Of a stretch of DNA of 36,591 bases, positions 212-36,591 are shown in pieces; within the stretch, counting starts at the first letter, position 1; every line of letters begins with the position of its first letter. This DNA is from an uncultured Gammaproteobacteria bacterium (lineage in GTDB: Bacteria > Patescibacteriota > Microgenomatia > UBA1406), in assembly GCA_964358525.1 (NCBI GenBank), contig CAYHPU010000003.1, positions 1 through 36,591 on the forward strand. Direction: 5' to 3'. Position numbers and translations under genes: made by a program. A model generated the notes under the pieces. That model made no database searches. It was not told where the DNA came from and was given only the letters and a program-made list of their open reading frames with translations.

Positions 212-1348
212 TTAACCTTTTTCAACTTCTAATTTTTTATATATTTCTAGTGTTTGCGAGACCATTTTCTCAAACGAAAATTTTTTGAAATAGTCTAACC
301 CCTCCTGGCCTCCCCTATTAGGGGAGGGTTGGGTGGGGTTCTTTTCAATTTCGAATGTCTGCAATTTTTCTATCAATTCCTTCTCGTTTGCATTACTAAA
401 GAAAATTGCACTCTCCGGTGCCACCTCCCTAAAAGCCGGTATGTCTGATAAAAGCAGCGGCGTCCCACAATAAGCCGCCTCAACTACCGGAAGCCCGAAC
501 CCTTCGGCACGAGAAGGAAGTATAAGAGCGACCGTTTTTTGATACAAGTACTTCAGCAAATTGTCTTTAACTTCATGCAAAAACACAATTTTTTTATCCA
601 CACCTTTCTTATACGCATACGCTTTTACTCGTTTTGTAAACAAGTCATCAGGAGTAACACACACCAACTGCGAATTTATTTTACTCTCGGCAAAGGCGTC
701 AATTAAGAATTCTACATTTTTGTGCGGATAACAATTCCCCACATAGAGAAAAAAGGTAGTATCGATAAGTAATGGAAACAGCCCCTCAAATGATTCAGCG
801 GCCATAAATGATTTGTCCACTCCTTCATTCGTAACAACGATTTTGTCAGACGAGAGCGATGGAAATGTTTGTAACACATCGTCTTTCACCGATTGAAGTG
901 GAACAATTATTTTTTGAGATGCATAAATAGCATGATGTAATACTTTCTGATATCCCCATTTTTTTGCTTCATAAAGTAGGGGATTGAGGGTTGTTGCTTT
1001 ACCCGTTTGATGATGAAGAAGCGTGAGATCATGAATGGTCACCACAAATGGTTTGTTATAAAGAACGGGGTGGGAAAAATACGGAAAATGTACTAAATCA
1101 AACCCTCCCTGTTCTAGTTCCTGCCAAAAAACAAACTGTTCAGACAATGAGAGAAATTTTGAATTTTAAACCAGGAATTTTAAATTTACTGCTTGTTTGT
1201 GATTTGTTATTTGTGATTTGTGATTTTGGGTACCAAAGATCGTATACTCTGTCTCTTTATCCAGCAAATTAAGATAAGTTATCAGATTTCTGATATAACG
1301 CCCAACGCCACCTTCACTCCATAACCTACAGTCAATTGCTATTTTCAT
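212..1348 (-). pseudogene. GT4-family glycosyltransferase split by one in-frame TAA (1166-1168)
   Basis: ORFs 1166..1348 (MKIAIDCR...GVGRY) and 212..1147 (VTIHDL, PHKN, EGFGLPVVEA) are in the same frame, separated only by TAA + 6 codons; the break lies in a heptad-repeat-like stretch. Confidence 0.75.
297..340. repeat. REP-like palindrome (CTCCCCTATTAGGGGAG core) inside GT4 CDS
   Basis: Similar to intergenic elements at 3311-3367, 4678-4720 and 36538-36591; encodes NPTQPSPNRGGQEG in frame. Confidence 0.75.
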
Positions 1349-1358
1349 AATGTTCTTG

Positions 1359-1420
1359 TGTCATCCCCACGCCCGCCTGCATTGCCTTGCAAAGCATGGC
1401 TGGCAGGAAGGCGGGGATCT
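1359..1420. repeat. TGTC-tagged REP (TGTCATCCCCRCG...AAGGCGGGGATC) with nested insert
   Basis: Second copy at 23566-23612 with a different inner hairpin. Confidence 0.8.
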
Positions 1421-1440
1421 ATTTTTATAAAATTTGATTA

Positions 1441-1550
1441 TTTATATGCGGCGAGCATGTGTATTTGCGAAGCGTGGTGGATGTCTGAGTAGCAACAAGC
1501 CAGATGTCCGAGTTCACCGCGCGAGCAAATATACTGCAAGCCGTAAATAA
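1441..1550. repeat. ~110-nt long imperfect hairpin between two GT genes
   Basis: TGCGGC/GCCGTA, GTGTATTTGC/GCAAATATAC and TGGTGGA/TTCACCG arms pair. Confidence 0.55.
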
Positions 1551-2492
1551 TTATGCTCTAATCTTACTTAATAATAGTATTCCTAATTTTATAACTCCAT
1601 AAATAAATGGATGATATTTTTCCTTGTAGTGCTTATCGTAAAACAACTGCATTGTGGAAAAAAAGTGTTTCCGCGTCTCTCTTCGTACTTTGTCATCCTT
1701 CGTTGCTAGCCCGCTCTGGTGTTTAATATGGTACGCCGTAAACTTTGGGTAATACCAAATAGAATATCCCATTTCTTTAATCCGATAGCACAAATCTATA
1801 TCTTCTCCATACATAAAATAATCTTCATCAAATCCATCAATAGATTTTAGGATGTCAGTCTTCACCAAAAAGAATGCCGCATTTGGACAATCAATTTCGT
1901 GAACAGAAGTCATATCTTTACTTGTAAGATGGTATCCGCCAAAAAGAGAAGATAGTTTTTCTAGACCGGTAAAATAACAGAATGCATTCCATGGAGTAGG
2001 AAAGCCACGATGGTTTGCCGGATCTCGCGTCCCGTCAGATAATTTGAGTTCTACTGTCAATGCGGCCTTAGGGATCGTCCGTCGACCATTTGTTGATTTA
2101 TCGATGGCTACGATCCCTTGTGCCACATCTTCATCTGAAATAGATGTTATATTATAATTAGATGTGGCCCGTTTCTCGTCTTTTTCAAGAAAAGAAATTA
2201 ATTCCTGGAAATCAATTTTGTCTTTTAGTAGTACGTCAGAGTTTAAAAGCAGCGTATATTTCCCCGTTGCGAGTCTGAGCCCCATATTATTTCCTTTTCC
2301 AAACCCGACGTTTTCTTTCAAATAGATTGTCTTTATAGTATTTTGTGTTTGCAACCACTCAACCGACCCGTCAGTTGAAGCGTTATCTACAACAAGAATC
2401 TCTACGCCCTCTTTAAGTTGCCCCTGAAGTAAGCCTAAACATTCCTTAAGTAATGGAAGCGTATTAAACGACAAAACTATCACCGAAATCAT
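1551..2492 (-). CDS. GT2-family glycosyltransferase (WbbL/rhamnosyltransferase-like) with ~33-aa palindrome-derived insertion
   Basis: ISVIVLSFN, VVDNASTDGS, LLLNSD, GFDEDYFMYGEDIDLC motifs. Confidence 0.9.
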   Translation of the reverse strand: MISVIVLSFNTLPLLKECLGLLQGQLKEGVEILVVDNASTDGSVEWLQTQNTIKTIYLKENVGFGKGNNMGLRLATGKYTLLLNSDVLLKDKIDFQELISFLEKDEKRATSNYNITSISDEDVAQGIVAIDKSTNGRRTIPKAALTVELKLSDGTRDPANHRGFPTPWNAFCYFTGLEKLSSLFGGYHLTSKDMTSVHEIDCPNAAFFLVKTDILKSIDGFDEDYFMYGEDIDLCYRIKEMGYSIWYYPKFTAYHIKHQSGLATKDDKVRRETRKHFFSTMQLFYDKHYKEKYHPFIYGVIKLGILLLSKIRA

Positions 2493-2563
2493 ATACCTAT
2501 TGTATCAAAGGAGAATATGTATCTATTCTAACTACTAACTAGTAACTACTAGCTACTAATCCA

Positions 2564-2592
2564 TTGACAACTGAACGATCGTTCACTATACT
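2564..2592 (+). promoter_or_regulatory. Sigma70 promoter with SOS-box-like operator in the spacer
   Basis: TTGACA(2564-69)-17 nt-TATACT(2587-92); perfect palindrome TGAACGATCGTTCA (GAAC-N4-GTTC) at 2572-2585. Confidence 0.85.
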
Positions 2593-2660
2593 AAAAAAGT
2601 CATTGGGCAAGGGTTAAGCAGTTGGCCAACTGCCTTACCCTAACCCTTACCTGTCTAAAT

Positions 2661-3239
2661 ATGAAACAACCTTTTATCGATAAACTCTCCAGCCTCAAAC
2701 AGTTCTTCCACACCTACAAGCGCCTACCTAGTTACCGCGAACTACAAACCCTTTGGCACGTGAAATCTAAAAACGCGGTGTTTCAGGCAATGCAGCTATT
2801 GGTAAGCGAAGGATATGTGGTGAAAGACTATATGGGCAAATTTTCTCCAACCAATAAATTAACGGCGCTTACTTTGTATGGAAACATCCCCGCTGGCTTT
2901 CCACTCCCAACCCCCCACGACACCGCGGAGACAATGTCACTCGATTCGTACTTAATTGAAAAACCAAATGCAACGTTTTTACTTAAAGTAAGCGGAGATT
3001 CATTAAAAGATGTAGGAATTATGACCGGAGATTTGGCTATTATCGAAAAAACAGAGCGCGCAAACGTAGGACAAATTATCTTGGCGTGTATAGATAATGA
3101 ATGGACGTTAAAAATTCTTGAAAAACAAAACGGCCGCTATATTCTTATGGCGGCAAATTCCGCCTATCCTCCCTTTATTCCAAAAACAGACTTAAAAATT
3201 TATGGAATTTTAAAAGGAGTGATACGAAAATACCAGTAA
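2661..3239 (+). CDS. lexA: LexA-family repressor/S24 peptidase with UmuD-like C-terminal domain
   Basis: N-terminal HTH (LPSYREL...KSKNAV), cleavage site AGFP, catalytic GDS and TLK; ATG 2661 preferred over TTG 2622, which lies in a repeat. Confidence 0.8.
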   Translation: MKQPFIDKLSSLKQFFHTYKRLPSYRELQTLWHVKSKNAVFQAMQLLVSEGYVVKDYMGKFSPTNKLTALTLYGNIPAGFPLPTPHDTAETMSLDSYLIEKPNATFLLKVSGDSLKDVGIMTGDLAIIEKTERANVGQIILACIDNEWTLKILEKQNGRYILMAANSAYPPFIPKTDLKIYGILKGVIRKYQ

Positions 3240-3246
3240 CTTATTT

Positions 3247-3425
3247 AAAAATTCGAAGCACGAAACTCGAATTTCGAAACAAATTAATACAAATTCGAAA
3301 TAATAAATAAACCCCACCTCACCTCCCCTATCCGCCAGCTGGCGGAGGGGAGGATTAAGGAGGGGTAAATTTATGATTTAATGCTTAGGATTTGTTTCGG
3401 ATTTCGATATTCGGATTTCGGATTT
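3247..3425. repeat. Composite intergenic element: heptad-repeat inverted arms enclosing a REP that holds TCCGCCAGCTGGCGGA
   Basis: Left arm AAATTCGAAGCACGAAACTCGAATTTCGAAACAAAT; right arm ATTTGTTTCGGATTTCGATATTCGGATTTCGGATTT; inner palindrome 3331-3346. Confidence 0.8.
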
Positions 3426-3431
3426 ATTATT

Positions 3432-4673
3432 ATGACAATCTATGAAATCGACTGGCCTCGTGCCATCTTACATTTAGACGCCAACGCTTTTTTTGCCTCT
3501 GTTTTTCAGGCAGTAAACCCAAAGCTGAAAGGTAAACCCGTCGTTGTTGGCGCAGAGCGGGGTATTGCAACAGCGATATCTTACGAAGCCCGCAAGTTCG
3601 GTGTAACGCGTGGTATGCGAATGTTTGAAATAAAAAATTTGTGTCCGCAGTGCATTATTATGGAAGGAGACTACGAACTTTTTGCACTGTTTTCTTCCCG
3701 CATGTTTTCTATCCTTCGGCAATACACACCGGTCGTCGATGAATATTCGGTTGACGAATGCTTCGGAGATTTACTCGAGCTGTATAAATTTAAAGATGAA
3801 AATTATCAGCAGATAGGTGCACGTATTCAAAATCAGGTGCAAAATGAACTTGGTATTCCTGTTTCAATTGGCATATCAGTTACTAAAACACTTGCAAAAC
3901 TGGCGTCCGAAAGTAAAAAACCCTCAGGGCTTACGGTTGTTTCTATGGTCGACCGAGATGTTTTTTTAAAAACAATTCCCGTAGAAGACGTGTGGGGAAT
4001 AGGGCCGGCAACAACCACTCTTCTTAAGCGCCACGGCATTAAAACCGCACATAGCCTTGCATCCATCCGTTCGCCAAGTAGCCTACCTAAAGGTAGGCTA
4101 CTTAATAAGAATCACCTAGAAATCATACAAGAACTCAACGGAAATCTCGTCTACCCCCTCAATCCCAACGCAAAAACAGACTATAAATCTATGAGCTCGG
4201 TACGAACATTCCATCCCCCAACGAATGATCGGCAGGAATTGTGGTCCCGCTTGCGAGAAAATATTGAGGATGTTTTTGCCAAGGCACGGAACTACAACTA
4301 TAAAGTTAAGCGAATTTCAATCTTCCTAAAAACTCAAACCATGCAGTATTTTAACATCGATGTGAACTTTACTGAACCTTTAGAATATCCTCTTTCAAAA
4401 ATTGAGGATATTAAAAATGCTTTTTTATCTATTTATAATTCGGAATATGATTACCGTGCAACGGGTGCGACTATTTCAAATCTTGTCGAACCATACAACA
4501 CGCAGGTCTCTCTTTTCGAATCTGAAAGTAAACAAAGGAATAGTAAAGTTGAAAAAGTCTACAACGCACTAAAGGGGAATAAAATCTCTTTCGGCACCTC
4601 GCTTTGGAATAAAAAAGGAAAACAAGAAAAAAGTCTCCCCACCTTCTCCCTCCCGATTTTGAATGTTAAGTGA
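3432..4673 (+). CDS. dinB: Y-family DNA polymerase (DinB/UmuC-like)
   Basis: ILHLDANAFFAS, SYEARKFGV, YSVDECF, SVTKTLAKLAS, DVWGIG motifs; ATG 3432 (upstream extension is repeat-derived). Confidence 0.9.
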   Translation: MTIYEIDWPRAILHLDANAFFASVFQAVNPKLKGKPVVVGAERGIATAISYEARKFGVTRGMRMFEIKNLCPQCIIMEGDYELFALFSSRMFSILRQYTPVVDEYSVDECFGDLLELYKFKDENYQQIGARIQNQVQNELGIPVSIGISVTKTLAKLASESKKPSGLTVVSMVDRDVFLKTIPVEDVWGIGPATTTLLKRHGIKTAHSLASIRSPSSLPKGRLLNKNHLEIIQELNGNLVYPLNPNAKTDYKSMSSVRTFHPPTNDRQELWSRLRENIEDVFAKARNYNYKVKRISIFLKTQTMQYFNIDVNFTEPLEYPLSKIEDIKNAFLSIYNSEYDYRATGATISNLVEPYNTQVSLFESESKQRNSKVEKVYNALKGNKISFGTSLWNKKGKQEKSLPTFSLPILNVK

Positions 4674-4677
4674 ATTT

Positions 4678-4803
4678 AACCCCTCCCAACCTCCCCTCCG
4701 CCAGCTGGCGGATAGGGGAGCCTGCCCGCAACGCTTCGCGTAGCGAGGCGGGCGGGGCGCAGGTGGGGTTTGTTTCGAAATTCGGATTTCGTACTTCGGA
4801 TTT
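4678..4803. repeat. Composite REP cluster with nested palindromes
   Basis: TCCGCCAGCTGGCGGA 4697-4712; CCCGCAACGCTTCGCGTAGCGAGGCGGG ~4725-4752; heptad arm 4768-4803. Confidence 0.8.
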
Positions 4804-4819
4804 GTATATAATACACTCC

Positions 4820-6517
4820 ATGCGCTATTCAAAGCTTTTCGGCAAAACAGTCAAAAATGCACCAGCAGACGTAAGTACTGTTTCACAAAAATTATTGCAC
4901 CAGGCTGGTTATATTCGCGAGTCTACCTCTGGTCGCTATTTCTTTTTGCCACTTGGCATGAAAGTACAACAAAACATAATGAAAATCGTTAAGGAAGAAA
5001 TGGACAAAACGGGCGCGCAAGAAATGGTCTCGCCAATTCTGCATCCTTTAGAACTGTGGAAAGAAACAAACCGAACCAACACGACTGGATTTGAATTAAT
5101 GAAAATCACTGATCGGAGAGATTTTGAATTTGCCCTAGGCGGTACCGCAGAGGAAATGTTTGTAGATGTTATCCGCAAGTTTCAGATTAGTTACAAAGAC
5201 TTACCAATAAATATCTACCAATTCTCAAATAAGTTCAGAGACGAAATGCGTGCACGCGGTGGACTTCTGCGGGTACGCGAATTTATTATGAAAGACGCGT
5301 ATTCGTTCGACACCGATGAGGTGTCGTTTAAAAAAACCTACCAAGAAATGTGGAAGACGTATCAAACTATTTTTGAACGTATTGGTCTTACAACTATTCC
5401 AGTTGAAGCAGATAACGGGTACATTGGGGGAGAGTATTGCCATGAGTTCGATGTGCTGTGTGACATTGGAGAAAGCAGATTTTTGACGACAGGGGACGGT
5501 TCCTATGCTGCGCACGAAGATGTTGCAAAGTTCGGTCGAGGACTTGTAAACAAAGACGAAAAAGAAAGACCAATGAAAATAGTAGAACAACCAACGTGGG
5601 TAAAAACCATGGAGGATAATCTGAAACACTACAAATTACCAAAGTCTCATTTCTTAAAAAATGTTGTATATAAAAACCGAACTAATAAAGAAATAGTTAT
5701 TGCAGTAATTCGAGGAGATCTTGACGTAAATAAAACCAAACTAGAGCATGCACTGAGTGCTGTAGGACAACTAGAAGACGCGAAAGTTTCGGATCTAACT
5801 TCAATCGGAACCAAGCCTGGTTATGTACATTCGTGGGGACATAAAAAAGCTCACTACATTGGTGACATTTCACTCACGACAGTAAAGAATTTTATAGGTG
5901 GGCAAAAAGAAGACAAAACAGACTCTATAGATGTAAATTACGGAAGGGATTTCACTTGTGAAAAACTTGCAGATATTGCCATGGCACAAGACGGGTACAT
6001 AGCAGAAAATGGAAAACCGTTGATTGAGAAAAAAGGAATTGAAGTTGGAAATATTTTCCAACTCGGGTACCACTATACCAATCTCATGAAGAACGCAGTA
6101 TTCACCGACAAAGATGGAATTGAAAAAAAATATTATATGGGGTGCTATGGCATCGGTATTGGCCGTACTATGGCAACGCTCGTTGAGGTTTCGCACGACG
6201 AGAAGGGGATTATTTGGCCTGAAAGTGTTGCGCCATACAAAGTGCATCTTGTAGGAATTGATCTTCAAGACTCTAACGTCTTAAGTCTAACGTCTAGTGT
6301 CTACAAGACGCTAATCAATAACAATATAGAAGTCTTGTACGACGATCGAGAAGATGTTAGGCCAGGTGAAAAGTTTGCTGACGCCGATCTTTTAGGAATG
6401 CCATACCGAGTAGTTGTTTCCAAACGCACAGGAGAAAAGGTAGAGCTTAAAAAGCGTACCGAAAAAGAAACGAAATTAATATCACTAGAAGAACTTGTAG
6501 TAGCAATGTCATCCTGA
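4820..6517 (+). CDS. proS: Proline--tRNA ligase (bacterial type with editing insertion)
   Basis: MRYSKLF start, KFRDEMRARGGLLRVREFIMKDAYSF, GIEVGNIFQLG, MGCYGIGIGR, GEKFADADLLG; TATAAT just upstream of ATG 4820. Confidence 0.97.
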   Translation: MRYSKLFGKTVKNAPADVSTVSQKLLHQAGYIRESTSGRYFFLPLGMKVQQNIMKIVKEEMDKTGAQEMVSPILHPLELWKETNRTNTTGFELMKITDRRDFEFALGGTAEEMFVDVIRKFQISYKDLPINIYQFSNKFRDEMRARGGLLRVREFIMKDAYSFDTDEVSFKKTYQEMWKTYQTIFERIGLTTIPVEADNGYIGGEYCHEFDVLCDIGESRFLTTGDGSYAAHEDVAKFGRGLVNKDEKERPMKIVEQPTWVKTMEDNLKHYKLPKSHFLKNVVYKNRTNKEIVIAVIRGDLDVNKTKLEHALSAVGQLEDAKVSDLTSIGTKPGYVHSWGHKKAHYIGDISLTTVKNFIGGQKEDKTDSIDVNYGRDFTCEKLADIAMAQDGYIAENGKPLIEKKGIEVGNIFQLGYHYTNLMKNAVFTDKDGIEKKYYMGCYGIGIGRTMATLVEVSHDEKGIIWPESVAPYKVHLVGIDLQDSNVLSLTSSVYKTLINNNIEVLYDDREDVRPGEKFADADLLGMPYRVVVSKRTGEKVELKKRTEKETKLISLEELVVAMSS

Positions 6518-6565
6518 GTTCCCTTTGTAATCAAAGCGGACGAAGGATCCTACAATATATGAAAT

Positions 6566-8251
6566 ATGAAATCTAGAATCTTTCACCTAATATTCAGTAT
6601 TTTGTTTACCGTTTCATGTTTCATGTTTACTACCTCTTCTGTTCGCGCCGAAGCCATAAACAATTTCGACTCCAAAATTACCATCAACAAAGATGGCTCC
6701 ATAAAAGTAGAAGAAACAATAACGTATGATTTTGGAGATCTTGAAAAACATGGAATTTACCGCACTATCCCGTATATAAAAACAAATGCAAAAGGAAAAA
6801 AATTCAAACTAGATATTTCACTACTTTCAATAACCGATGAAAATAGGAAAAGTTACAACTACACCACGCTTTATGTAAACAATGGTGTGCAATATAAAAT
6901 CGGAAGTAAATACACGACCCTTTCTGGTATCCACACTTATATTATTTCGTACGAAGTTAAAGGGGCACTAACCTATTTCAAAGATCATGATGAGCTGTAC
7001 TGGAATGCGACGGGTAACGAATGGCCCGTGCCGATTCAAGAATCTATTACCATGCTTACCTTTCCAACCGAAGTTCCTTATGACAGTGTAAAAACAGTCT
7101 GCTATACCGGAGCCGCAGGAAGTTCCGCAAAAAACTGCATTACCGACAAAACCCTTGTCACCCTAACCTCCCCCCTCAATTCCTACGAAGGTATTACGTT
7201 TGCTGCGTCTTTTCCGCCGGGTATTGTTGCAAAACTAGAACCAAAACCATATGTTTCTTTTTGGGATACAGCGCTTGGCCAAGTTCTTATAGTTCTTATT
7301 GCAATAGTTGCTATTTGTGCCGCAATCTTTTGGTACATTATCTATCCTATATGGCTTCCGGTTAAATGGTTTTTGCATGGGAGAGATCCAAATGTGGGAA
7401 ATTCGGCAACCGCATGGTTTGACCCGCCACAGACAAAAACTAAACGCCCCCTTACCCCTGCAGAAACCGGAACGCTTGTTGACGAGAAGGCAGACATCAG
7501 AGATGTCATGGCAACAATTATTGATCTCGCATATCGTGGCTATTTAAAAATAGAGGAACGGAAAAAAGATGATTTCTACATTATTCGTGATCGACGAAAT
7601 AAGAAAAATGAAACCCTGCAACTTTTTGAGATACAAATTCTTCAGGATTTTTTTGAGGACGACCCTTTTGAACTTCGCATAAAAGGAGCAGAGCTATATA
7701 AAACGGTAAAAGAAGTACAAGATTTGTTGTACGAAAGCGTGGTAAGAGAACAGTTCTTTCCCAAAAATCCTCAATCTATTCGTAATTTCTATTTAGTGGT
7801 TATCTCGCTCGCCGTGTTTACACTAAATCCGCAGCTTGTACTTGTCTCCCTGCTTTTTGGGCTTAATATGGCGCGTAAAACTTTGGACGGTGCAAAAGCT
7901 GCAAAAGTAGCGGAAGCACTGAAAAACTTTCTGAAGAGTCAAGATAGGCAGCTTAATTACCAAGGTGAAAAACAATTATTGTTTGAAAAACTATTGCCGT
8001 ATGCGGTTGCGTTTGGAGTAGAAAAGAATTGGGCAGAGCGGTTTAAAGATTTTAAATTAACGAATCCCGAATGGTATTCTTCATACGACAATCACTCTTT
8101 CACCGCAATGTACTTTGCCAGCCGACTTGGTTCGTCGTTTAACTCATTCTCGGGAAGCGCAACCCCACCGTCAAGTTCAGGTTTCTCGTCTGGCTCTTCT
8201 GGTGGCTTCTCCGGCGGCGGGGGAGGTGGCGGGGGAGGTGGAAGTTGGTAA
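6566..8251 (+). CDS. DUF2207-type membrane protein
   Basis: Signal peptide, ELYWNATG, ATIIDLAYRGYL, LPYAVAFG, Gly/Ser-rich tail ending GGGGGSW. Confidence 0.88.
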   Translation: MKSRIFHLIFSILFTVSCFMFTTSSVRAEAINNFDSKITINKDGSIKVEETITYDFGDLEKHGIYRTIPYIKTNAKGKKFKLDISLLSITDENRKSYNYTTLYVNNGVQYKIGSKYTTLSGIHTYIISYEVKGALTYFKDHDELYWNATGNEWPVPIQESITMLTFPTEVPYDSVKTVCYTGAAGSSAKNCITDKTLVTLTSPLNSYEGITFAASFPPGIVAKLEPKPYVSFWDTALGQVLIVLIAIVAICAAIFWYIIYPIWLPVKWFLHGRDPNVGNSATAWFDPPQTKTKRPLTPAETGTLVDEKADIRDVMATIIDLAYRGYLKIEERKKDDFYIIRDRRNKKNETLQLFEIQILQDFFEDDPFELRIKGAELYKTVKEVQDLLYESVVREQFFPKNPQSIRNFYLVVISLAVFTLNPQLVLVSLLFGLNMARKTLDGAKAAKVAEALKNFLKSQDRQLNYQGEKQLLFEKLLPYAVAFGVEKNWAERFKDFKLTNPEWYSSYDNHSFTAMYFASRLGSSFNSFSGSATPPSSSGFSSGSSGGFSGGGGGGGGGGSW

Positions 8252-8260
8252 ACCAGAAAA

Positions 8261-8599
8261 TCAGTTCATCAATCTCTCTATTTCTTTTCTTACCCATTCG
8301 CTGTCGTTAGCGTTTTTGCCAATATAACAATAATCAACTCTTTGTCTACTCTGATCCAGAAAAACCAAATCCAAAATCAAAACCGGCTCAATTGTCCTCC
8401 CTTCTAGTACAAATCTTCGAGACATGCAAGACTCAAAGAGTCCGCGAAATGTATGCCCCGCTGCCTTCGCCTCTGTAACAAGCTCATCTAGAGAATCATA
8501 AACCCCAACCACTACCTTATCATCACCAACGTGTTCTTTTAACTCATCGTCCACTAATAATGTCAAGACCCTAGGATTTATTGTTTCAACCATTTCCAT
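8261..8599 (-). CDS. Hypothetical protein
   Basis: 112-aa ORF filling the gap; TAGAAT next to the start. Confidence 0.55.
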   Translation of the reverse strand: MEMVETINPRVLTLLVDDELKEHVGDDKVVVGVYDSLDELVTEAKAAGHTFRGLFESCMSRRFVLEGRTIEPVLILDLVFLDQSRQRVDYCYIGKNANDSEWVRKEIERLMN

Positions 8600-8649
8600 A
8601 TTCTACCAGGTGGCTCTTGGATAATTGATTCCGGTGTTATACTTTTTCC

Positions 8650-9111
8650 ATGGCAATCTCTTTTGTAGCAATTCCCGATATTCCAAGCCTAAAGAAAATA
8701 AAGCCTTCATTAGATGATCTAACCATTAAAAATAGATTAAAACTTCAAGAAAATGGCACAGCTGTATTCCTTATTTTGCGAGATAAAGACGATCCTATCG
8801 GCTTTGTATTTCTCAAATGGAACGGCAAACCAACACATCCCGAGTATCCAGACATGGAAGACCTGTATATTAGAGAAGACATGAGGGGAAAAGGATATGG
8901 AACAAAGTTGATAGACGAGTGCGAACAGCGAGCAAAAGAAAAGGGTTTTAAAAAAATTGGTCTCGCCGTAAACCCAACAGAAAATTTAATTGCAAAAAAA
9001 CTTTACGAAAAGTTGGGATATATTCATGACGGCAAAAAATCATACGTCGATGGGGTTTATAATGGAGTAGAGGACATCGCCACCGACCTCGAAAAAAGAT
9101 TAAAATTGTAG
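8650..9111 (+). CDS. GNAT-family N-acetyltransferase
   Basis: LYIREDMRGKGYGTKL, AKKLYEKLGY; its TAG stop is supplied by a GTAG-REP. Confidence 0.9.
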   Translation: MAISFVAIPDIPSLKKIKPSLDDLTIKNRLKLQENGTAVFLILRDKDDPIGFVFLKWNGKPTHPEYPDMEDLYIREDMRGKGYGTKLIDECEQRAKEKGFKKIGLAVNPTENLIAKKLYEKLGYIHDGKKSYVDGVYNGVEDIATDLEKRLKL

Positions 9112-9184
9112 GGGCGAGGTTTCCTCGCCCGCACCTTGTCATTGCGAGCGAAGCCAAGTCAGACTTGGCGAAGCGTGGCAATCT
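9108..9184. repeat. GTAG-REP (9108-9130) plus TGTC-REP with nested hairpin (9137-9184)
   Basis: GTAGGGGCGAGGTTTCCTCGCCC; TGTCATTGCGAGCGAAGC[CAAGTCAGACTTG GCGAAGC]GTGGCAATCT. Confidence 0.8.
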
Positions 9185-9788
9185 CATTCTCTAGGTAAGA
9201 AATTACCACATTCGCAATCATTTTATGTCCTGCAGCCTTTGGATGCACACTGTCTAGTAACATGTTTTTATATCCCTTTTTTTCAAGTTCGTCGTACAAT
9301 TCTATCTTTGATACTTTTTGTTCTTCACAAACTTCAGATATGTAGCCATCATATTTCTTTACATCTTTATTGTTAAATAACAAATTCTTAAACAATCTCT
9401 CATCTACGGGTGTGAGTCCAACAATACACACATCACAGGAATAGTTACGTACCGTTCGAATAATTTTTACCACCGCTTCCTTAAATTCACTTTCCGGTGT
9501 TTGTTTTAGCGTCATCCAGTTATTCGTACAGCTATCGTTTATTCCCGCCGCAATAATCACGAGATTCTTTTCATTGGGAAAAATACGCTCAGTGAATTCT
9601 CTTTCAACTCTTTCTGCCATTCTCACCATTACTTCTCCAGGAATTCCCAAATTATAAACCTGCACATTACCTTCTTTCCCAATATTAAATTTTTCATCAA
9701 CATACTTTCGGAGTCGCGCTACCCACCCTCCTTCACTGTCCCACTTCCCATACGCAATCGAATCCCCAAAAACCAAAATTTTATTCAT
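9159..9788 (-). CDS. SGNH/GDSL hydrolase
   Basis: FGDSIAYG, NLGIPG, GIND, DSVHP blocks. Confidence 0.9.
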   Translation of the reverse strand: MNKILVFGDSIAYGKWDSEGGWVARLRKYVDEKFNIGKEGNVQVYNLGIPGEVMVRMAERVEREFTERIFPNEKNLVIIAAGINDSCTNNWMTLKQTPESEFKEAVVKIIRTVRNYSCDVCIVGLTPVDERLFKNLLFNNKDVKKYDGYISEVCEEQKVSKIELYDELEKKGYKNMLLDSVHPKAAGHKMIANVVISYLENEIATLRQV

Positions 9789-9809
9789 ATAGTGATTCTA
9801 TCAGATTTC

Positions 9810-9871
9810 GTAGGGGCGAGGTCTCCCCGACCAAACTCCCGAACCGTAGGGGCGGACCCCCGTGTCCGCCC
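9810..9871. repeat. Two GTAG-tagged REPs
   Basis: GTAGGGGCGAGGTCTCCCCGACC and GTAGGGGCGGACCCCCGTGTCCGCCC. Confidence 0.75.
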
Positions 9872-9900
9872 AAACAACTAAAGAAAATTTGGTCCAATGT

Positions 9901-10278
9901 TTATTTATCTCCTATTACTTGAATTAAATTCTCGTCCAAATCATAAAACGTTGCGAAATATTTATCAAACGTCGGTGCTTTAAATGGAGTTGCCAAAAAT
10001 TTTACTCCTTTTGCCAAGAGCGCTGTATATGTTTCTTCAACAGATGCAACGGTAATATTAAACATATGCCGACTCTTATCTTTATTTTTTCCATGCACCT
10101 CCGAGTGTTGCCCAATCCATAGCCATGCGCCACCCTTTTCAAATTCAAAAAGCACTCCAGTGTCTTGCGGATGGTTCAGCTCTTCAACAACTTTGAGATT
10201 TAGTTTCTCTCTATACCAATCTGCAAGCTTTCTAAAATCTTCCGACCAAATTAAAACAGTAGAAATATTCTCAAACAT
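9901..10278 (-). CDS. VOC/glyoxalase-family protein
   Basis: LADWYREKLNL ... ATFYDLDENLIQV pattern, 125 aa. Confidence 0.85.
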   Translation of the reverse strand: MFENISTVLIWSEDFRKLADWYREKLNLKVVEELNHPQDTGVLFEFEKGGAWLWIGQHSEVHGKNKDKSRHMFNITVASVEETYTALLAKGVKFLATPFKAPTFDKYFATFYDLDENLIQVIGDK

Positions 10279-10284
10279 TGTATT

Positions 10285-11070
10285 TTATAAACTTATAATT
10301 CCTAGGGTCGCTCCCTTTAGGGTGCGACCCTCAATGAAATCCCACAGTATTCTATTAAACTCCTCCGGTTTTTCCATATTACTCATATGTCCCGCTCCTA
10401 TAATAACTTTTTTTTGAGAATTTTTTATACCTTTATGTAATATGTCCGCAATTGTCTGAAAGTAGGGTAGGTCATTCTCACCGGTGATAATTAAGGTTGG
10501 AACTAATATCTCTTGTAAACGACTTAATGCAGGCATTGACAACTTCTCTTTCATGTCATTATTCAGCCAATGCCACCCGGAATAACCCGAAACTATTGTT
10601 TCAAGTTCTTTTAAGACTGTACTATTTTCCCACGTTGTTTTAAAAACCTCATGGTTCATCCAATTTTTCTTTGCTTTATCGATACCTTGTTCTTTGGCAA
10701 AAACTCTCCAGTCAACCGTACTTGCATATCCACCAAGTGACGAATCAGCGATCACGAGTGATAAGACAAATTCCGGATAGGTGAGTGTAAAATCTATCGC
10801 AACTTCTCCTCCAAGTGATAAGCCAACAATATGGGCTTTCTTGATTTTGTTGAATTCGAGTATATCTCGTAAATCGTTGTGGTGACTATATGGTTTGTGC
10901 GGAACAAGAGATTTCCCAAACCCCCGCATGTCATACGACAATGTTTGATAATTTCTTGAGAAGAGTTTAACCTGCTCGTTCCATATTCTGTGGTCTAGGG
11001 TAAATCCATGAATAAATACAATTGCGTCACCCGTTCCCTTAATTTCAGAATAGATACTTCCTGTTTTCAT
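10285..11070 (-). CDS. Alpha/beta hydrolase
   Basis: FIHGF, YDMRGFGKS, GLSLGG nucleophile elbow, GAGHMSNME; C-terminal EGRTLKGATLG is REP-derived. Confidence 0.92.
   Translation of the reverse strand: MKTGSIYSEIKGTGDAIVFIHGFTLDHRIWNEQVKLFSRNYQTLSYDMRGFGKSLVPHKPYSHHNDLRDILEFNKIKKAHIVGLSLGGEVAIDFTLTYPEFVLSLVIADSSLGGYASTVDWRVFAKEQGIDKAKKNWMNHEVFKTTWENSTVLKELETIVSGYSGWHWLNNDMKEKLSMPALSRLQEILVPTLIITGENDLPYFQTIADILHKGIKNSQKKVIIGAGHMSNMEKPEEFNRILWDFIEGRTLKGATLGIISL
10304..10338. repeat. AGGGTYGC...GCRACCCTCAATGAA palindrome family (copies 10304-10338, 14606-14640, 15950-15995)
   Basis: Three near-identical copies in the same orientation at gene 3' ends. Confidence 0.85.
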
Positions 11071-11092
11071 GTGTCTATTTTACCAATTCTAA

Positions 11093-11174
11093 AACCCCTC
11101 CCCATTTGGGGTTTGTGATTTATGATTTGTTTCGTCCGCCAACTGGCGGATTTCGACATTCGGATTTCGGATTT
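11093..11174. repeat. Heptad-repeat arm with nested TCCGCCAACTGGCGGA
   Basis: Matches 3389-3425 apart from a 14-nt insert and a substitution. Confidence 0.75.
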
Positions 11175-12645: not shown

Positions 12646-12810
12646 AGGCTTGTATATATTGTACTGATAATAGTGAACACAAACAGAACAGGAACAGAAG
12701 GGTTAAAGAATAATTAGCAATTTTTCATGGGTTCCAATTGATATCTGTATTATACCATAGTTACTTAAGCTCCTTAAGTAACTTAAGTACCTTAGCGTTA
12801 TAATAAACAT

Positions 12811-14592: not shown

Positions 14593-14618
14593 CAACGCGT
14601 TTCCCAGGGTTGCTCCCT

Positions 14619-15179
14619 TTAAGGTGCAACCCTCAATGAACTTAATAATGTTTTTACAACTTTATATTCCGGCCCCAGTTCTTTTCTCACCTGCTCTAAA
14701 CTTATGGCATCCCACTTTTCTTCTAATTTATTTTTGAGTAGTGTGACTAGATCAGAGAATTCCATCTCACGAAAATATCGTACTGCATACATAAATCCTT
14801 CAACGGACGCAAATCGATAACAATCTGCATTACAACAGATTTCAGATTCAAGGCTGTAGAATTTTTTTGCTCCATGGTGCTCAAGAACGCAGTAACGAAT
14901 ATTTTCTTTGTCTTCCGTGGATAGATTTGACCTCGAGAGTAGCTCGTTTGTCTTTCCAAGACACATTGTTACATGCTCCGCTAGTCTGTTTTCTTTAATT
15001 GCTCTACTAATAACACAGTCCATCAGTAACGTTCCTGCTTCAACGATTTTTTCATTTGCACCTAAAGCCAGAGCTAATTTCTTCCCTTTAGCACATGATA
15101 AGTCAATATGTTTCTGCACGGGACCGTCGATATATGCTATTTTCCGTACCTCTTCTAAAAACGCATCCATAGATTTCAT
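14619..15179 (-). CDS. HD-domain-like hypothetical protein (degenerate)
   Basis: H...LA..LGA....VEAGTLLMD...EHH...NAD resembles the HD fold with MD in place of HD. Confidence 0.6.
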   Translation of the reverse strand: MKSMDAFLEEVRKIAYIDGPVQKHIDLSCAKGKKLALALGANEKIVEAGTLLMDCVISRAIKENRLAEHVTMCLGKTNELLSRSNLSTEDKENIRYCVLEHHGAKKFYSLESEICCNADCYRFASVEGFMYAVRYFREMEFSDLVTLLKNKLEEKWDAISLEQVRKELGPEYKVVKTLLSSLRVAP

Positions 15180-15210
15180 TTTATACTTTTTTCTACTGTC
15201 CCTAAGGTCT

Positions 15211-17034: not shown

Positions 17035-17040
17035 ACTAAA

Positions 17041-21777: not shown

Positions 21778-21854
21778 GTCTTGAAAGTATATCAGACCTC
21801 AATCTCCTCAAACCACCCCAACTACCCTTACCAACCCTTAATTACCCCTTGTCT

Positions 21855-21877
21855 CGCCGAAGTCTTGACGAAGGCGG
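21855..21877. repeat. CRCCGAAGTCTTGACGAAGGYGG family (21855-21877, 23525-23550, 25312-25337)
   Basis: Three copies with identical core CCGAAGTCTTGACGAAGG, two embedded in C-rich periodic tracts. Confidence 0.85.
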
Positions 21878-23482: not shown

Positions 23483-23612
23483 TGTCATTGCGAGCGAAGC
23501 GTGGCAATCTCAGATTATGCTTTGCCCACCGAAGTCTTGACGAAGGTGGGTCATCCCCGCGACCTTGTCATCCCCGCGCCCGCCTTGCCGCGAGGCAGGA
23601 AGGCGGGGATCC
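23483..23612. repeat. Cluster of REPs from three families
   Basis: TGTC-REP 23483-23510; family copy 23525-23550; partial GTCATCCCCGCG 23550-23561; nested REP 23566-23612. Confidence 0.85.
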
Positions 23613-25245: not shown

Positions 25246-25374
25246 GCAGATTGTTATACCTCAACCCCCCCCTGCACCCGTGCCTCCCCAAACTCCCTAA
25301 CTACCCCCTTGCCCGCCGAAGTCTTGACGAAGGTGGGTAACTTCCTGTATTTTCCTTTAATTTTGTTTGCAAGG

Positions 25375-26599: not shown

Positions 26600-26744
26600 A
26601 TTTTATCAAAAAAATTCTGTCCTATTATTTTCCTCCCCACCCTTACCTCCCCAAACTCCCTAATTACCCTTAACCACCCTAAATTTCCTTTAACCATCCT
26701 TTAACTTCCTATATTTTCCTTTAATTCTATTTATTTATATTGAA

Positions 26745-26900
26745 TTTACCGAGGGCTCCCCGTCTTCCTTCTTGCACAAACTCACTTATTAATTGCTGTC
26801 TTACCGTGCTAAGTTGAAGGTACCGCCGAGAGGACTCTAACCTCTAGCCCTGTGTTGGGATTTCGTTCAGCACCATACCCCTTCAAATTGAATAACAAGT
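26745..26900 (-). ncRNA. Candidate structured RNA with tRNA T-arm-like hairpin
   Basis: GC-richer intergenic tract; nested stems TTGAAGG/CCTTCAA and CACTTGTT/AATAAGTG; AGAGG-TTAGAGT-CCTCT hairpin. Confidence 0.4.
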
Positions 26901-30893: not shown

Positions 30894-30944
30894 TTTTATC
30901 CACGAACTAACACTATTATTTTTGGGTCGATTAAGGAAACTCTG

Positions 30945-31017
30945 CTCCCCAGAGAGGACTCGAACCTCTAACCTTGTCGTTAACAGCGACCTGCTCTACC
31001 GATTGAGCTACAGGGGA
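30945..31017 (-). tRNA. tRNA-Asn (GTT)
   Basis: TCCCCTG TAGCTCAATCGGTAGAGC AGGTCG CTGTTAA CGAC AAGGTT AGAGG TTCGAGT CCTCT CTGGGGA G; cloverleaf, CCA not encoded. Confidence 0.95.
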
Positions 31018-31247
31018 ATTGACTTCAAAAATTCTTTTCCACATCCACTTTTTAAATATTTCTCCTTAATCCTTGCTTCTGTTCGGTTTTTAGCCTGCTC
31101 TATATAAATTGATTTCCAGGGTCGATAATTTTTGGTTGAAAAAACATATCCAGTATTATGTTCAATAATTCTTCTTTCGAAATGTGAACTCATTCCAACA
31201 TATATTCTTCCATCTTTTTGACTTTTGATTGCATAAACACAATACAT
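31008..31247 (-). CDS. Small GIY-YIG nuclease (UPF0213/SLX1-like), 79 aa
   Basis: MYCVYAIKS...RIYVG, RIIEHN, TKNYRPW, ARIKEKYLKSG; last 10 nt overlap the tRNA 5' end. Confidence 0.9.
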   Translation of the reverse strand: MYCVYAIKSQKDGRIYVGMSSHFERRIIEHNTGYVFSTKNYRPWKSIYIEQAKNRTEARIKEKYLKSGCGKEFLKSIPL

Positions 31248-31263
31248 AGTCTTTATATTATAT

Positions 31264-31321
31264 GCGACCTGCTCCCTGCCTGCCGGCAGGCAGGTACCGT
31301 CTGCCACACAGCTACAGGGGA
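31264..31321 (-). pseudogene. Disrupted 5' half of tRNA-Asn
   Basis: TCCCCTGTAGCT...CGGTA[CCTGCCTGCCGGCAGGCAGG]GAGCAGGTCGC matches the tRNA 5' half up to the anticodon loop. Confidence 0.85.
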
Positions 31322-31354
31322 AATATAAAATTTAAAAGAGCACCTCAGATTCTC

Positions 31355-34782: not shown

Positions 34783-34810
34783 ATCGTTTTTTTTCGTTAT
34801 ACTCTTACGT

Positions 34811-35899
34811 ATGAAGCGGCTTGCACACCTCGATGGACTGCGCGGGCTTGCTGCCATTGCAATTGCCTTTCACCATTCGCTCTATATTCTCCGCATAAAT
34901 GAAGTGTGGGGCATGTGGCACCACAAACTTTTTGATGTGCTCACTCCACAAGCAAAGCTAACACAGCTACTTTTACTTATTTTTAACGGGAGGGCTGTCG
35001 TTACCATCTTTTTTGTTTTAAGCGGATATGTTGCATTTCTTTCGCTCGAGAGATCTAACTTCCAATTTAATCAAACGCTCCGCTACTACGCTAAACGACT
35101 GGTGCGACTGTACCCAGTCTATTTCGTAGTAACGCTTCTCACTGTGCTCTATGTTTCTTCTGGCTTTGTACATAGGCGCTTTGATCCTTATTCTGGCGAG
35201 TGGTTTTGGTGGTGGTTTAATCACAAAATCACACCAACAGAAATTGTAAGAAATTTTTTGTTAATGAATGTTTCTTTGAGTGGTGTTGCCTGGTCAATGA
35301 GAGTAGAAGCTTTTTCAACTCTTCTAATGCCTCTTTTTTTCTTTATAGTAAAAAAAACAACCCTTGTTATTGATGTGTGTATTGCGCTCGGCATAGCTCT
35401 TTTTGCATTCCACATCTTAAAATGGTCGGACCTTGCATTTGTTTCTATGTGCTATATGGGTATGACGCTGCCAAAATGGAAAAATATTCTAAATAAGAAG
35501 TGGCTACTTATGCTCGCTCTTTTTCTTCTCACTGTTCCCCGAATGACTATGCCCGATGTGTATAAAATAATAGGAGAAACAACGGGTGCACTTATTTTAG
35601 TCAGCTGTCTTTTATATCAAGAATTACCTCGTTTAAAACGTTTCCTTCAGTCGCGAGTTCTGCAATTTTATGGTTCTATTTCGTATGCATTTTTTCTTCT
35701 TCACTTTCTCGTGCTCTACATTTCTTCCGTAATTATGTTCAATACTGTTCCTCATTATTTTCTAAAAACATACCCACTTCCTTTAATGATTGCGCTTGCG
35801 ATTATATCCATTTTAATCGCAACGCCACTTTCCTGGCTTATCCACACCTACGTTGAAAAACCAATTTCAAAATTATCTTTACAAACGACTTTACCTTAA
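34811..35899 (+). CDS. Acyltransferase family 3 (OafA-like)
   Basis: LDGLRGLAA, FFVLSGY, RLVRLYP, WSMRVE, GSISYAFFLLH, VEKP. Confidence 0.92.
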   Translation: MKRLAHLDGLRGLAAIAIAFHHSLYILRINEVWGMWHHKLFDVLTPQAKLTQLLLLIFNGRAVVTIFFVLSGYVAFLSLERSNFQFNQTLRYYAKRLVRLYPVYFVVTLLTVLYVSSGFVHRRFDPYSGEWFWWWFNHKITPTEIVRNFLLMNVSLSGVAWSMRVEAFSTLLMPLFFFIVKKTTLVIDVCIALGIALFAFHILKWSDLAFVSMCYMGMTLPKWKNILNKKWLLMLALFLLTVPRMTMPDVYKIIGETTGALILVSCLLYQELPRLKRFLQSRVLQFYGSISYAFFLLHFLVLYISSVIMFNTVPHYFLKTYPLPLMIALAIISILIATPLSWLIHTYVEKPISKLSLQTTLP

Positions 35900-35946
35900 C
35901 CCTTCCAACTGCCTTACCCTTACCTTTGCCTTTGTTATAATGTGGC

Positions 35947-36537
35947 ATGCGTATCGGTGTAGACATAGATGCAGTACTTGCTAATCTTCTTGCCCCTCTG
36001 GACAAATTTCATAACAAAAAATATGGTACGAAAGTTACGATGCGCCATCACACAACCTACGACCTCGGAAAGGTGTGGGGTTGTAGTTGGGATGAGTCAA
36101 TAAACCACATGTATGAATTTTATTTTTCAGATGAGTTTCATGAAATAAAACATATCGCCGGTTCAAAAAGAGGAATTAGAACACTTGCCGCACACCATGA
36201 TCTTTTTGTTATAACCTCCCGCCCTTATGAAATAGAGGACCGTAGCAATAAGTGGATACATAAACATTTTGCAAATAAATTCAAGCAGACTTTTCACACA
36301 AATCAAATGACAAAAAATAAAGAGCAGTCTTCAAAGAAAAAATCTGATATATGTTTGGAACAGAACATAACTATTCTTATTGAAGACTATATGGGACATG
36401 CAAACGACTGTGCAGAGAAGGGGATAAAAGTAATTTTACTAACTACCCCGTGGAATAGAAATGAGAAGAGTTTGCATCCAAATATCGTCCGTGTAAATTC
36501 CTGGAAACAAATCCCTGGTTTGTTGTCTTCTTTTTAA
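35947..36537 (+). CDS. HAD-superfamily 5'(3')-nucleotidase (NT5C-like)
   Basis: IGVDIDAVLA, ITSR, K, LIED, PWN, RVNSW. Confidence 0.85.
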   Translation: MRIGVDIDAVLANLLAPLDKFHNKKYGTKVTMRHHTTYDLGKVWGCSWDESINHMYEFYFSDEFHEIKHIAGSKRGIRTLAAHHDLFVITSRPYEIEDRSNKWIHKHFANKFKQTFHTNQMTKNKEQSSKKKSDICLEQNITILIEDYMGHANDCAEKGIKVILLTTPWNRNEKSLHPNIVRVNSWKQIPGLLSSF

Positions 36538-36591
36538 ACCACTCCCCACATCCCCTCCGCCAGCTGGCGGATAGGGGAGGATTAAGGTGGG
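36538..36591. repeat. REP with nested TCCGCCAGCTGGCGGA (36556-36571), truncated by window end
   Basis: Same family as 3311-3367 and 4678-4720. Confidence 0.85.

Follow-up and report, generated by a model that had tools for sequence, protein, structure and literature searches.

Small palindromes nested in the hairpins of a Patescibacteria genome, with candidate links to HUH Y1 genes and to small GIY-YIG cassettes in tRNA genes

Very short repeats, palindromic or nested in one another, have been described from several kinds of genomes. Rickettsia palindromic elements (RPE), about 100–150 bp in length and confined to Rickettsia, enter genes in frame, and free-standing GIY-YIG homing genes are known as the seg genes of phage T4 and as fungal mitochondrial open reading frames (ORFs), which are inserted at gene ends together with a duplicated gene end. 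The SDR elements of heterocyst-forming cyanobacteria, reportedly described by Elhai et al. in 2008, are said to be mobile, to measure 21–27 nt and to lie nested in one another and in hairpin contexts, and we know of no enzyme that belongs to them. To our knowledge, neither the GC clusters of yeast mitochondria nor the repeats of green-algal organelles have a fixed place at the junction of a nuclease cassette. What PMC5861425 states on distribution restricts the SDR elements to Nostocaceae, the account of the GC clusters in PMC4478555 names putative short target duplications, the merging of units and a suspected helping role of an encoded endonuclease, and a nesting of small palindromes is described in the part of PMC2670323 that deals with the algal repeats. 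Repetitive extragenic palindromic (REP) elements accompanying RAYT genes occur within other palindromes and in frame inside ORFs according to the relevant passages of PMC3733652. For subclass 2.1 of these genes the corresponding passages give a TIR (terminal inverted repeat) motif, GGGGWSAS, and nothing further (Di Nocera 2013, PMC3733652), and report that nothing REP-like was found near the gene (Quentin 2018, PMC6006769). Here we describe perfect palindromes of 13, 16 and 20 bp which lie inside other hairpin-forming repeats of an uncultured bacterium, starting from the window, by which we mean the whole 36,591-nt stretch of its contig C3 (CAYHPU010000003.1, assembly GCA_964358525.1).

The draft genome comprises 1.21 Mb in 169 contigs with 39.5% G+C and is 93% complete. 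Its protein relatives are named Patescibacteria or candidate phyla radiation (CPR), Microgenomates group (Levy-, Davies-, Curtiss- and Beckwithbacteria), and the sequencing runs that contain the window sequence stem from groundwater metagenomes. The genes of the window are unremarkable and tightly packed and the intergenic DNA is rich in short GC-rich hairpins. From the counts that follow we conclude that the small GC-rich perfect palindromes (13, 16 and 20 bp) are inserted modules and not decayed parts of a single composite repeat, and that the loops of other hairpin-forming repeats are their main landing sites, which leads to nesting at two and three levels. We took a genome-wide census of hairpins whose perfect stem measures at least 6 bp. 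Of 3281 such hairpins, 54, among them a few tandem repeats, have a counterpart elsewhere in the genome in the form of an exact 10+10-nt empty site, compared with 8 for the segments when shifted. An outer perfect stem, 7 bp or longer and no more than 6 nt away, surrounds 40 of 836 GC-rich short hairpins and 11 of 2422 shifted controls.

Chief among the inner palindromes is the 16-mer TCCGCCAGCTGGCGGA, called F2 in the following, with 41 exact copies, ten copies with one mismatch and three with two. These 54 copies reside in at least six unrelated classes of hosts. The F1 element, a hairpin of the form AACCCCNCC..CCTCCCC-loop-GGGGAGG..GGNGGGGTT whose core CCTCCCCTAATAGGGGAGG, with 42 copies, is found more often than any other hairpin of the genome, holds F2 in its loop in 21 cases and in one additional chimera; either asymmetric register and many F1 subtypes are represented. 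TGTCAT-headed hairpins hold another 14 copies in their loops, simple repeats (TTTCG, CAAATCA or GGAAATT kind) hold 12, and the remaining six are elsewhere, one of them inside a 13-mer doublet and two inside a small palindrome that is itself lodged in an F1 bulge, so that nesting reaches three levels. Of 42 F2 hairpins, 26 showed an outer stem of at least 6. The size of the units, 13–20 bp, is indeed below that of typical REP/REPIN sequences or miniature inverted-repeat transposable elements (MITEs), as had been said in an earlier sequence-only reading of the window, and its proposal that other hairpins or repeats are targeted is supported for this main family.

How F2 enters its hosts depends on the kind of host. 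A direct repeat of at least 3 nt (range 3–5) abuts 17 of the 54 copies, compared with 538 of 19,966 random gaps (2.7%). Non-hairpin hosts show F2 flanked by a 3–4-nt duplication, and exact empty sites are present for them (TTG, ACA, TTCG). Copies in hairpin loops have no duplication; there F2 replaces three loop bases with a net gain of 13 (TAATA becomes the 16-mer plus TA, GAAG becomes G plus the 16-mer). Nine of the ten one-mismatch copies are altered in the 4-nt centre and one in the stem, and variants with an AACT or AGCC centre each recur in several hosts, so that F2 copies derive from other copies and the stem is under constraint. In spite of the duplications F2 does not look like a MITE: we found no longer element bounded by F2 halves in this genome, solo halves are at chance level apart from the variants, no multi-copy DDE transposase family is present in the genome, and a unit of 16 bp is far below MITE size. 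It also departs from IS200/IS605 elements, which insert 3' of a fixed tetra- or pentanucleotide and duplicate no target, as its left flanks vary and part of the copies have duplications. No fixed position of F2 relative to genes was found in this genome, and the single gene flanked by the 16-mer, DinB (3381–4673), lies between two composite repeats, which is probably incidental. The sequence-only reading had named confinement of a unit to one host and descent of all filled forms from one composite as outcomes that would speak against independent movement; because of the multiple hosts, the empty sites and the duplications neither applies to the 16-mer.

The same 16-mer is found far beyond this genome. 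Exact F2 occurs in 15 of 40 relatives, spread over three families. Sampling of 401 genomes across the phylum gave 75 that contain it, from 66 of 320 genera; the reversed control was seen in a single one. Positive genomes have between 1 and 41 copies, the maximum outside this genome being 33. This wide spread makes F2 special, since another 16-mer of this genome, CCAGTCAGTAGACTGG, was found in 0 of 40 relatives. In relatives F2 is lodged in the same hairpin hosts as well as in tRNA fragments and within coding genes. All seven copies in genome G021 are in frame inside ORFs of 169–664 amino acids, read as NPPAGG, SASWR or VRQLAD, and the Pth gene of this genome has four extra residues at the 16-mer that are missing in 24 of 24 orthologues; in G081, 16 of the 25 copies looked at lie in GTCATTGCGA-type hairpins, the window's own host. 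F2 is accordingly inserted DNA that keeps its sequence across very distant genomes. In viral contigs 55 stretches with the 16-mer were found, most of them high-GC coding DNA reading IRQLA and consistent with chance, and about 15 low-GC viral stretches with the 16-mer in hairpin contexts gave no clue to an enzyme. The core CCGCCAGCTGGCGG appeared in no paper of the searched literature, and matches to other strings were unrelated primers.

Small palindromes also have a regular place in cassettes that combine a small GIY-YIG gene with a tRNA gene. The window carries one of them on the minus strand, with a decayed tRNA-Asn copy that spans nt 1 to about 35 (31262–31330) and in which the D-loop CAATC is replaced by GTGTGGCAGAC, the ORF of a predicted small GIY-YIG nuclease of 79 amino acids (31008–31247; PF01541, 50.9 bits) and the intact tRNA-Asn(GTT) (30944–31017). 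The 20-mer CCTGCCTGCCGGCAGGCAGG (31275–31294) stands between GGTA and GAGC of the decayed copy, and the last codons and the stop of the ORF lie within the 5' end of the intact tRNA, the stop being the TAG of its GTAGCTC. The palindrome had previously been noticed in the D-arm of a tRNA half; this location is correct, the idea of a free insertion into a stray half is not, as the half is the tRNA-Asn 5' duplicate of the GIY-YIG cassette. The genome has 11 PF01541 matches, eight of them small paralogues, with six small ORFs beside tRNA genes, and a second cassette of the same build is located at tRNA-His (C163/C122).

A distinct GIY-YIG subfamily with the motif SYTxRFDGEW..LKSxQGR forms cassettes of the same build in G014, G021, G081 (two in tandem) and G370, and in these F2 is located at the left junction. 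Their layout is tRNA nt 1–13, the palindrome in place of three D-loop bases, a further 7–16 nt of tRNA, the ORF and the intact tRNA, F2 following GTAGCTC and replacing AGC, ATC or AAT of the D-loop with a net gain of 13. The replacement of three loop bases is a rule common to the tRNA D-loop, the F1 loop and the GAAG loop. A profile search for the subfamily gave 25 matches at E 1e-18 or below in 24 of the 401 phylum genomes, and a downstream tRNA was called in 18 of these 25 cassettes. Inspection of the 80 nt upstream of each match revealed exact F2 in six cases, F2 with one mismatch in one and with two mismatches in three, two of the latter having compensated stems (TCCGTC..GACGGA and TCCGGC..GCCGGA). 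Ten upstream regions have other GC-rich perfect palindromes there, one of which, in G364, is the 20-mer of the window, and five have none that is obvious. Variant stems found in cassettes are also the dispersed stems of the respective genome, as G269 and G407 have TCCGGC..GCCGGA copies and no canonical F2; G445 has the TCCGCC stem with other loops. Exact F2 is present in 14 of 24 subfamily-positive genomes and in 61 of 377 others (odds ratio 7.3, p 9e-6), and GIY-YIG matches average 7.75 in 16 F2-positive and 4.48 in 25 F2-negative relatives (p 0.003), kinship being ignored in both comparisons. As in homing cassettes, there is a GIY-YIG domain, the 5' end of the tRNA is duplicated with the intact tRNA kept, and the distribution over genomes is patchy. 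The D-loop palindrome is a regular, structurally conserved part of small GIY-YIG tRNA cassettes, the dispersed and nested palindromes are the same ones, and in our reading F2, its stem-compensated variants and the 20-mer of the window are the left-junction module of these cassettes.

Further loci of this kind were observed. G081 contains two tandem cassettes before one tRNA-Asn (L217, C1:342200-343200) with a third ORF-end remnant upstream, and the first ORF, having lost its TAG stop to the 16-mer, reads through into the second. Small GIY-YIG ORFs were also seen at the 3' ends of protein genes (C51:5100-5750 and C114:2300-2800), with the last 30–57 nt of the host gene duplicated; the one on C51 lies between inverted TGTCAT-headed hairpins and resembles an insertion with long target duplication. 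A tRNA-like 3' portion GGTTAGAGTCCTCTC, similar to the T-arm of tRNA-Asn, is located at 26800–26880 on the minus strand of the window; it received no ARAGORN or Rfam call and may be another tRNA fragment.

The 13-mers belong to a different kind of gene. Six Y1_Tnp genes (PF01797 matches over the cut-off) are present in this 1.2-Mb genome and no TnpB-type gene was found in it (no PF07282 match). Four of the Y1 genes are paralogues of about 231 amino acids with 47–58% identity and invariant NHFH and YIHLNP; NCBIfam REP_Tyr_transpos scores of the RAYT-like paralogues are 40.7 and 57.2 bits, below the 80-bit cut-off, and by signature (NHFH, FQ, YIHLNP, length) and not by tree they fit RAYT/TIRYT subclass 2.1. 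Each of the four is flanked by its own 13-mer palindrome, namely AGGGTGWCACCCT, AAGGTCWGACCTT, GAGGTGSCACCTC or AAGTAGSCTACTT with a nested unit, and the dispersed copies of the 13-mers are mostly inverted doublets. The fifth Y1 gene, on contig C11, has the GTAG-headed REP GTAGGGGCGGACCCCCGTGTCCGCCC on both flanks, which is also found in the window at 9846–9871 (plus strand) with related copies at 9108–9135 and 9810–9840. Cognate flanking palindromes were thereby found for five of the six Y1 genes; one IS200-like gene is located at a contig end and has unrelated end hairpins. We collected 542 relatives of the four paralogues, fetched 80 loci and examined 57, and in 49 of these the two flanks share at least a 10-mer, nearly always a locus-specific AGG..CCT palindrome. 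The RAYT/TIRYT-like HUH Y1 genes have their cognate repeats in the 13-mers of the form AGGnnnNnnnCCT and in the GTAG-headed REP. Of the features of a REPtron, the HUH motif with the catalytic tyrosine (Y---NP) and the flanking of the gene by a dispersed repeat were found for the 13-mers and the GTAG REP. A GT[AG]G head is present in the REP of the C11 gene only and missing in the 13-mers, the 16-mer and the 20-mer. No Y1 gene flanked by F2 was found in this genome and no adjoining Y1 gene in five relatives.

Two observations were made near these genes. The motif AATGCGGTGTATAAACCGTTG lies upstream of each of the four RAYT-like genes (C24:9560-9640, C8:12400-12620, C110:1440-1540 and C59:3620-3700), C8 also has a fifth copy, an orphan that comes with a 13-mer doublet of its own, and the motif may be a promoter or part of the end of the element. 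Three paralogues of a four-helix-bundle protein, which we take to be of the '23S rRNA intervening sequence protein' kind, are encoded at C11:19287-19616, C25:9516-9884 and C101:84-422, one of them 1 kb from the RAYT gene on C11.

A comparison with the described systems shows likeness to each of them in part. As in REP/REPIN-RAYT/TIRYT systems (Nunvar 2010; Bertels & Rainey 2011, PMC3116915), there are diverged single-copy HUH Y1 genes with HUH and Y---NP, each with its own palindrome, inverted doublets prevail among the dispersed copies and one gene has a GTAG-headed REP on its flanks; the 13-mer flanks however are far below the 20–40 bp of REPs, and the 16-mer is unlinked to Y1 genes. The small palindromes resemble GC clusters and algal repeats in being GC-rich hairpins in an AT-rich small genome, with short target duplications and a suspected endonuclease, whereas the latter are organellar, 30–50 nt or more in length and fast-evolving, without an invariant unit across distant lineages. 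With the SDR elements they share the very short length and the nesting in hairpin contexts, and differ from these in being still shorter, perfectly palindromic, identical across a phylum and tied to GIY-YIG cassettes. In-frame entry into genes, seen for all seven copies of the 16-mer in G021, is shared with the RPE, but the unit is 16 bp and adds four to six residues. The cassettes resemble free-standing GIY-YIG homing genes in having the ORF in or beside a conserved gene of which a part is duplicated so that the gene stays whole, in their patchy distribution (24 of 401 genomes) and in tandem re-invasion (G081). They differ in that the ORFs, predicted to encode the nuclease, have about 80–90 amino acids and thus the catalytic domain alone, the target is the D-arm of a tRNA and a perfect palindrome stands at the left junction. 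New are the size of 13–20 bp, one unit that is identical phylum-wide, its fixed place in mini GIY-YIG/tRNA cassettes, and 13-mers for subclass 2.1 genes.

Taking these results together we propose two machineries, with a probability of about 0.5: HUH Y1 transposases with the 13-mers and the GTAG REP, and small GIY-YIG cassettes with the 16- and 20-mers, the latter being spread by break repair. The enzyme that the sequence-only reading had left unidentified is by this narrowed to two candidates, the RAYT/TIRYT-like HUH proteins and the small GIY-YIG proteins. The GIY-YIG nuclease would do the cutting and break a hairpin-prone target at the stem-loop junction. The break would be repaired from a copy of the cassette, in which the donor order is A-palindrome-B-ORF-A-loop-B-C and the break falls at A|loop. 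A long repair tract would copy the whole cassette; a short one, or illegitimate repair at other hairpin loops, would copy the palindrome alone in place of loop bases. Repair at loops would exchange three bases for a net gain of 13, the same outcome as in the F1 and TGTCAT loops, and in duplex simple repeats a 3–4-bp duplication would be left. Break repair around a structure-seeking nuclease appears to us the simplest account of both the cassette and the dispersed palindromes. An even bolder version, which we put forward tentatively and consider less likely than not, is that the 16-bp palindrome identical across the phylum might be the junction module of new mini GIY-YIG homing cassettes (about 85 amino acids) that target the tRNA D-arm, and thereby the smallest known mobile DNA with its own enzyme. 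The nuclease would then cut any suitable hairpin where its stem meets the loop, with a copy of the palindrome entering the break, and the palindrome would therefore colonise repeat loops, pseudo-tRNAs and, in frame, coding genes.

Several observations weigh against the break-repair part of this proposal. The genome of the window is the richest in F2, and no member of the F2-linked subfamily was found in it by tblastn in the assembly of 93% completeness and 169 contigs; none of its 41 F2 copies (0/41) lies within 1 kb of a GIY-YIG ORF. Likewise 61 of the 75 F2-positive genomes have no subfamily match at E 1e-18 or below, F2-free genomes exist with many small GIY-YIG genes (nine in G061, seven in G062), and G364 has 22 copies of F2 while its one detected cassette has the 20-mer. 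The junction position could also result if decayed tRNA copies were the only D-loop targets that are tolerated. The association tests take no account of relatedness, and cleavage and mobility are proposed from sequence. In addition, metagenome contigs of three studies showed no presence/absence difference: they contain no insertions or deletions where they span the empty site at 10304 or the filled ones at 9137, 11135 and 15950, a weak test that covers window positions 1–20000 at a depth of 2–8, most repeats being contig ends.

The Y1 transposases might also move all small palindromes, the 16-mer included, as single-stranded REP-like hairpins. Since they act on single-stranded DNA, their elements would land in extruded hairpin loops, where the palindromes are enriched, and the conserved stem and free loop of the 16-mer, the six Y1 genes in a genome of this size, their cognate palindromes with shared flanks in 49 of 57 related loci, and RAYT-type REPs inside other palindromes and ORFs, as described in parts of PMC3733652, would all agree with this. 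On the other hand no Y1 gene accompanies the 16-mer here or in the five relatives, the 16-mer has no GTAG head, G021, G023 and G035 have seven, five and two exact copies of F2 and no Y1_Tnp match, and a Y1 match is about as frequent in F2-positive (13 of 16) as in F2-negative relatives (18 of 25; p 0.61). IS200/IS605-type insertion moreover gives no target duplication, which 17 of the 54 copies have, and we consider a role of Y1 enzymes for all the palindromes unlikely. Even less probable as a general account is template switching during replication, in which fold-back copying and correction at quasi-palindromes would build the stems on site from host sequence. It may be the origin of two other classes, the 6-AGTA-6 palindromes, which have a constant loop and varied yet perfectly compensated stems built in part from host bases (in 12 of the 17 GC-rich members, CCA/TGG of the F1 bulge), and the inserts of 19–21 nt with a TCCG-NTT-CGGA core, which duplicate 5–8 host bases; one 16-mer of this sort is confined to this genome, none of 40 relatives having it. 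The identical 16-mer in dozens of unrelated contexts and genomes and the same 20-mer in the window's genome (G000) and in G364 are left unexplained by it.

One could further think of the 16-mer as the binding site of a conserved protein (of the parS, matS or uptake type), the copies being kept by selection without a dedicated insertion enzyme. A perfect 16-bp palindrome that is identical in 75 of 401 genomes and 66 genera, has 1–41 copies per genome inside genes as well as between them and rarely changes its stem would suit such a site. Yet the copies are gains of DNA and not mutated resident sequence, the exact site is missing in 326 of the 401 genomes sampled, no fixed position relative to genes exists, and the compensated stems of related genomes (TCCGGC..GCCGGA) fit a hairpin better than a fixed protein-contact sequence, all of which makes this very improbable. 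Hardly any more credit, and in our view slightly less, can be given to the absence of independent mobility, with filled and empty forms arising from a few composite repeats through duplication, internal deletion and gene conversion. It draws on the 21 of 54 F2 copies that occupy one position of one host, the F1 loop, without target duplication, on the chimera at C4:27652, which is a recombination between copies in different hosts, and on two inner palindromes of the window, described below as (c) and (d), that occur twice each, (d) in one host type. For the 16-mer it is refuted by the multiple contexts, as F2 occupies no fewer than six unrelated classes of hosts in this genome, and in relatives it is found in other hairpins, in tRNA fragments and within coding genes; the exact empty sites with 3–4-bp duplications in non-hairpin hosts, the insertion in the conserved Pth gene of G021 that is missing from 24 of 24 orthologues, and the F1-borne copies in both registers and many F1 subtypes also oppose it.

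The pairs of empty and filled hairpins within the window, labelled (a) to (f) in the sequence-only reading, with (f) being the tRNA half, all have their sequences at the positions that it gave, and the census extends the phenomenon to the whole genome (54 versus 8). For pair (a) the empty F1 element is located at 297–340, with the outer stem AACCCCNCC/GGNGGGGTT, the inner stem CCTCCCC/GGGGAGG, the loop TATTA and the empty hairpin CTCCCCTATTAGGGGAG at 310–326; F2 stands in the loop of this hairpin at 3331–3346 (F1 element about 3311–3367), at 4697–4712, where the right bulge holds a palindrome of the CCTGCC..GGCGGG type (4721–4756), and at 36556–36571 at the window end, no strand being assigned to F1 or F2. 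Pair (b) is not a clean one: the filled form at 11135–11150 (no strand), in a TTTCG-type simple repeat with TTTCG on either side, is the F2 variant TCCGCCAACTGGCGGA with one mismatch, which replaces GA of the empty form at about 3389. In pair (c) the hairpin TGTCATTGCGAG..GGCAATCT (9137–9184, plus) contains GCCAAGTCAGACTTGGC (9153–9169) between a duplicated GCGAAGC; its empty form TGTCATTGCGAGCGAAGCGTGGCAATCT is found at 23483–23510 (plus), with the exact empty site at 23486 and a further empty copy at 17041–17068. Pair (d) consists of the inverted doublet AGGGTCGCTCC..GGGTGCGACCCT (10304–10331, plus; another copy at 14606) and of the same doublet with the central 6-4-6 palindrome CTCCGCAGTAGCGGAG (15962–15977) at 15950–15988 (plus). 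Both hairpins of pair (e) are of the form TGTCATCCCC..GGGGATC on the plus strand. The one at 1359–1419 has a CCTGCC..GGCAGG-type palindrome inside that itself holds GCATTGCCTTGCAAAGCATGGC, which makes three levels, and the one at 23566–23611 has the different inner palindrome CCCGCCTTGCCGCGAGGCAGG.

The count of units and flanks over the genome, which found the 16-mer in several hosts, gave two copies each for the inner palindromes of (c) and (d). The second copy of the (d) palindrome (C145:779) is in the same host type and the (c) copies share their flanks, and because of the one host type each a duplicated composite is an equally good explanation for both. The idea that the inner hairpins move independently is thus upheld for the 16-mer with its at least six host classes, empty sites and short duplications, and independent movement is not shown for the inner palindromes of (c) and (d).

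Some other features of the window were noted. A palindrome of 28 bp, AAGTAGCCTACC-TAAA-GGTAGGCTACTT (4076–4103, plus), is in frame within the DinB ORF (3381–4673); it belongs to the same family as the palindromes beside the RAYT-like gene of contig C8 and encodes PSSLPKGRLL in the variable linker of DinB, about three residues more than in 10 of 14 orthologues. DinB/Pol IV forms an SOS-type pair with the LexA-like gene at 2622–3239 and stands between two inverted composite repeats (F1 and F2 plus TTTCG repeats) that have a 31-mer in common. In four groundwater runs the contig depth is 280–700 at 3336–4002 and 14675–16008 and 3–8 elsewhere, so that the TTTCG-type simple repeats and some palindromes are evidently common to many organisms of the community, and the 'opposite strands' joint 3390/4770 was seen at a depth of 52–650 in contigs of groundwater runs. 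Low-complexity runs on one strand (CCTTACC, CCCTAA, AACTACTA and others) adjoin palindromes in the intergenic DNA at 121–211, 2530–2570, 19078–19108, 21800–21850, 26640–26720 and 35900–35946. The repeat CCGAAGTCTTGACGAAGG[CT]GG has three copies in the window (21857–21877, 23529–23549 and 25316–25336), each within a CCC(A/G)CC..GG(T/C)GGG stem. An Rfam search of the window matched tRNA only.

In a Patescibacteria genome of such tiny size much of the intergenic space is nevertheless taken by nested mini-palindromes. The 13-mers flanking subclass 2.1 RAYT/TIRYT genes fill a stated gap, since no REP has been known for this subclass. Gene and tRNA annotation can be misled by the elements, since they enter conserved genes without breaking the frame and are a mark of decayed tRNA copies, and the 16-mer, being identical in a fifth of the sampled genomes, is a ready marker for insertion events in metagenomic time series. 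If the spread by break repair around small GIY-YIG genes is true, repeats would have a way of multiplying that differs from both RAYT/REP and MITEs, and the many small GIY-YIG nuclease ORFs in these and other bacteria would gain a function that can be tested.

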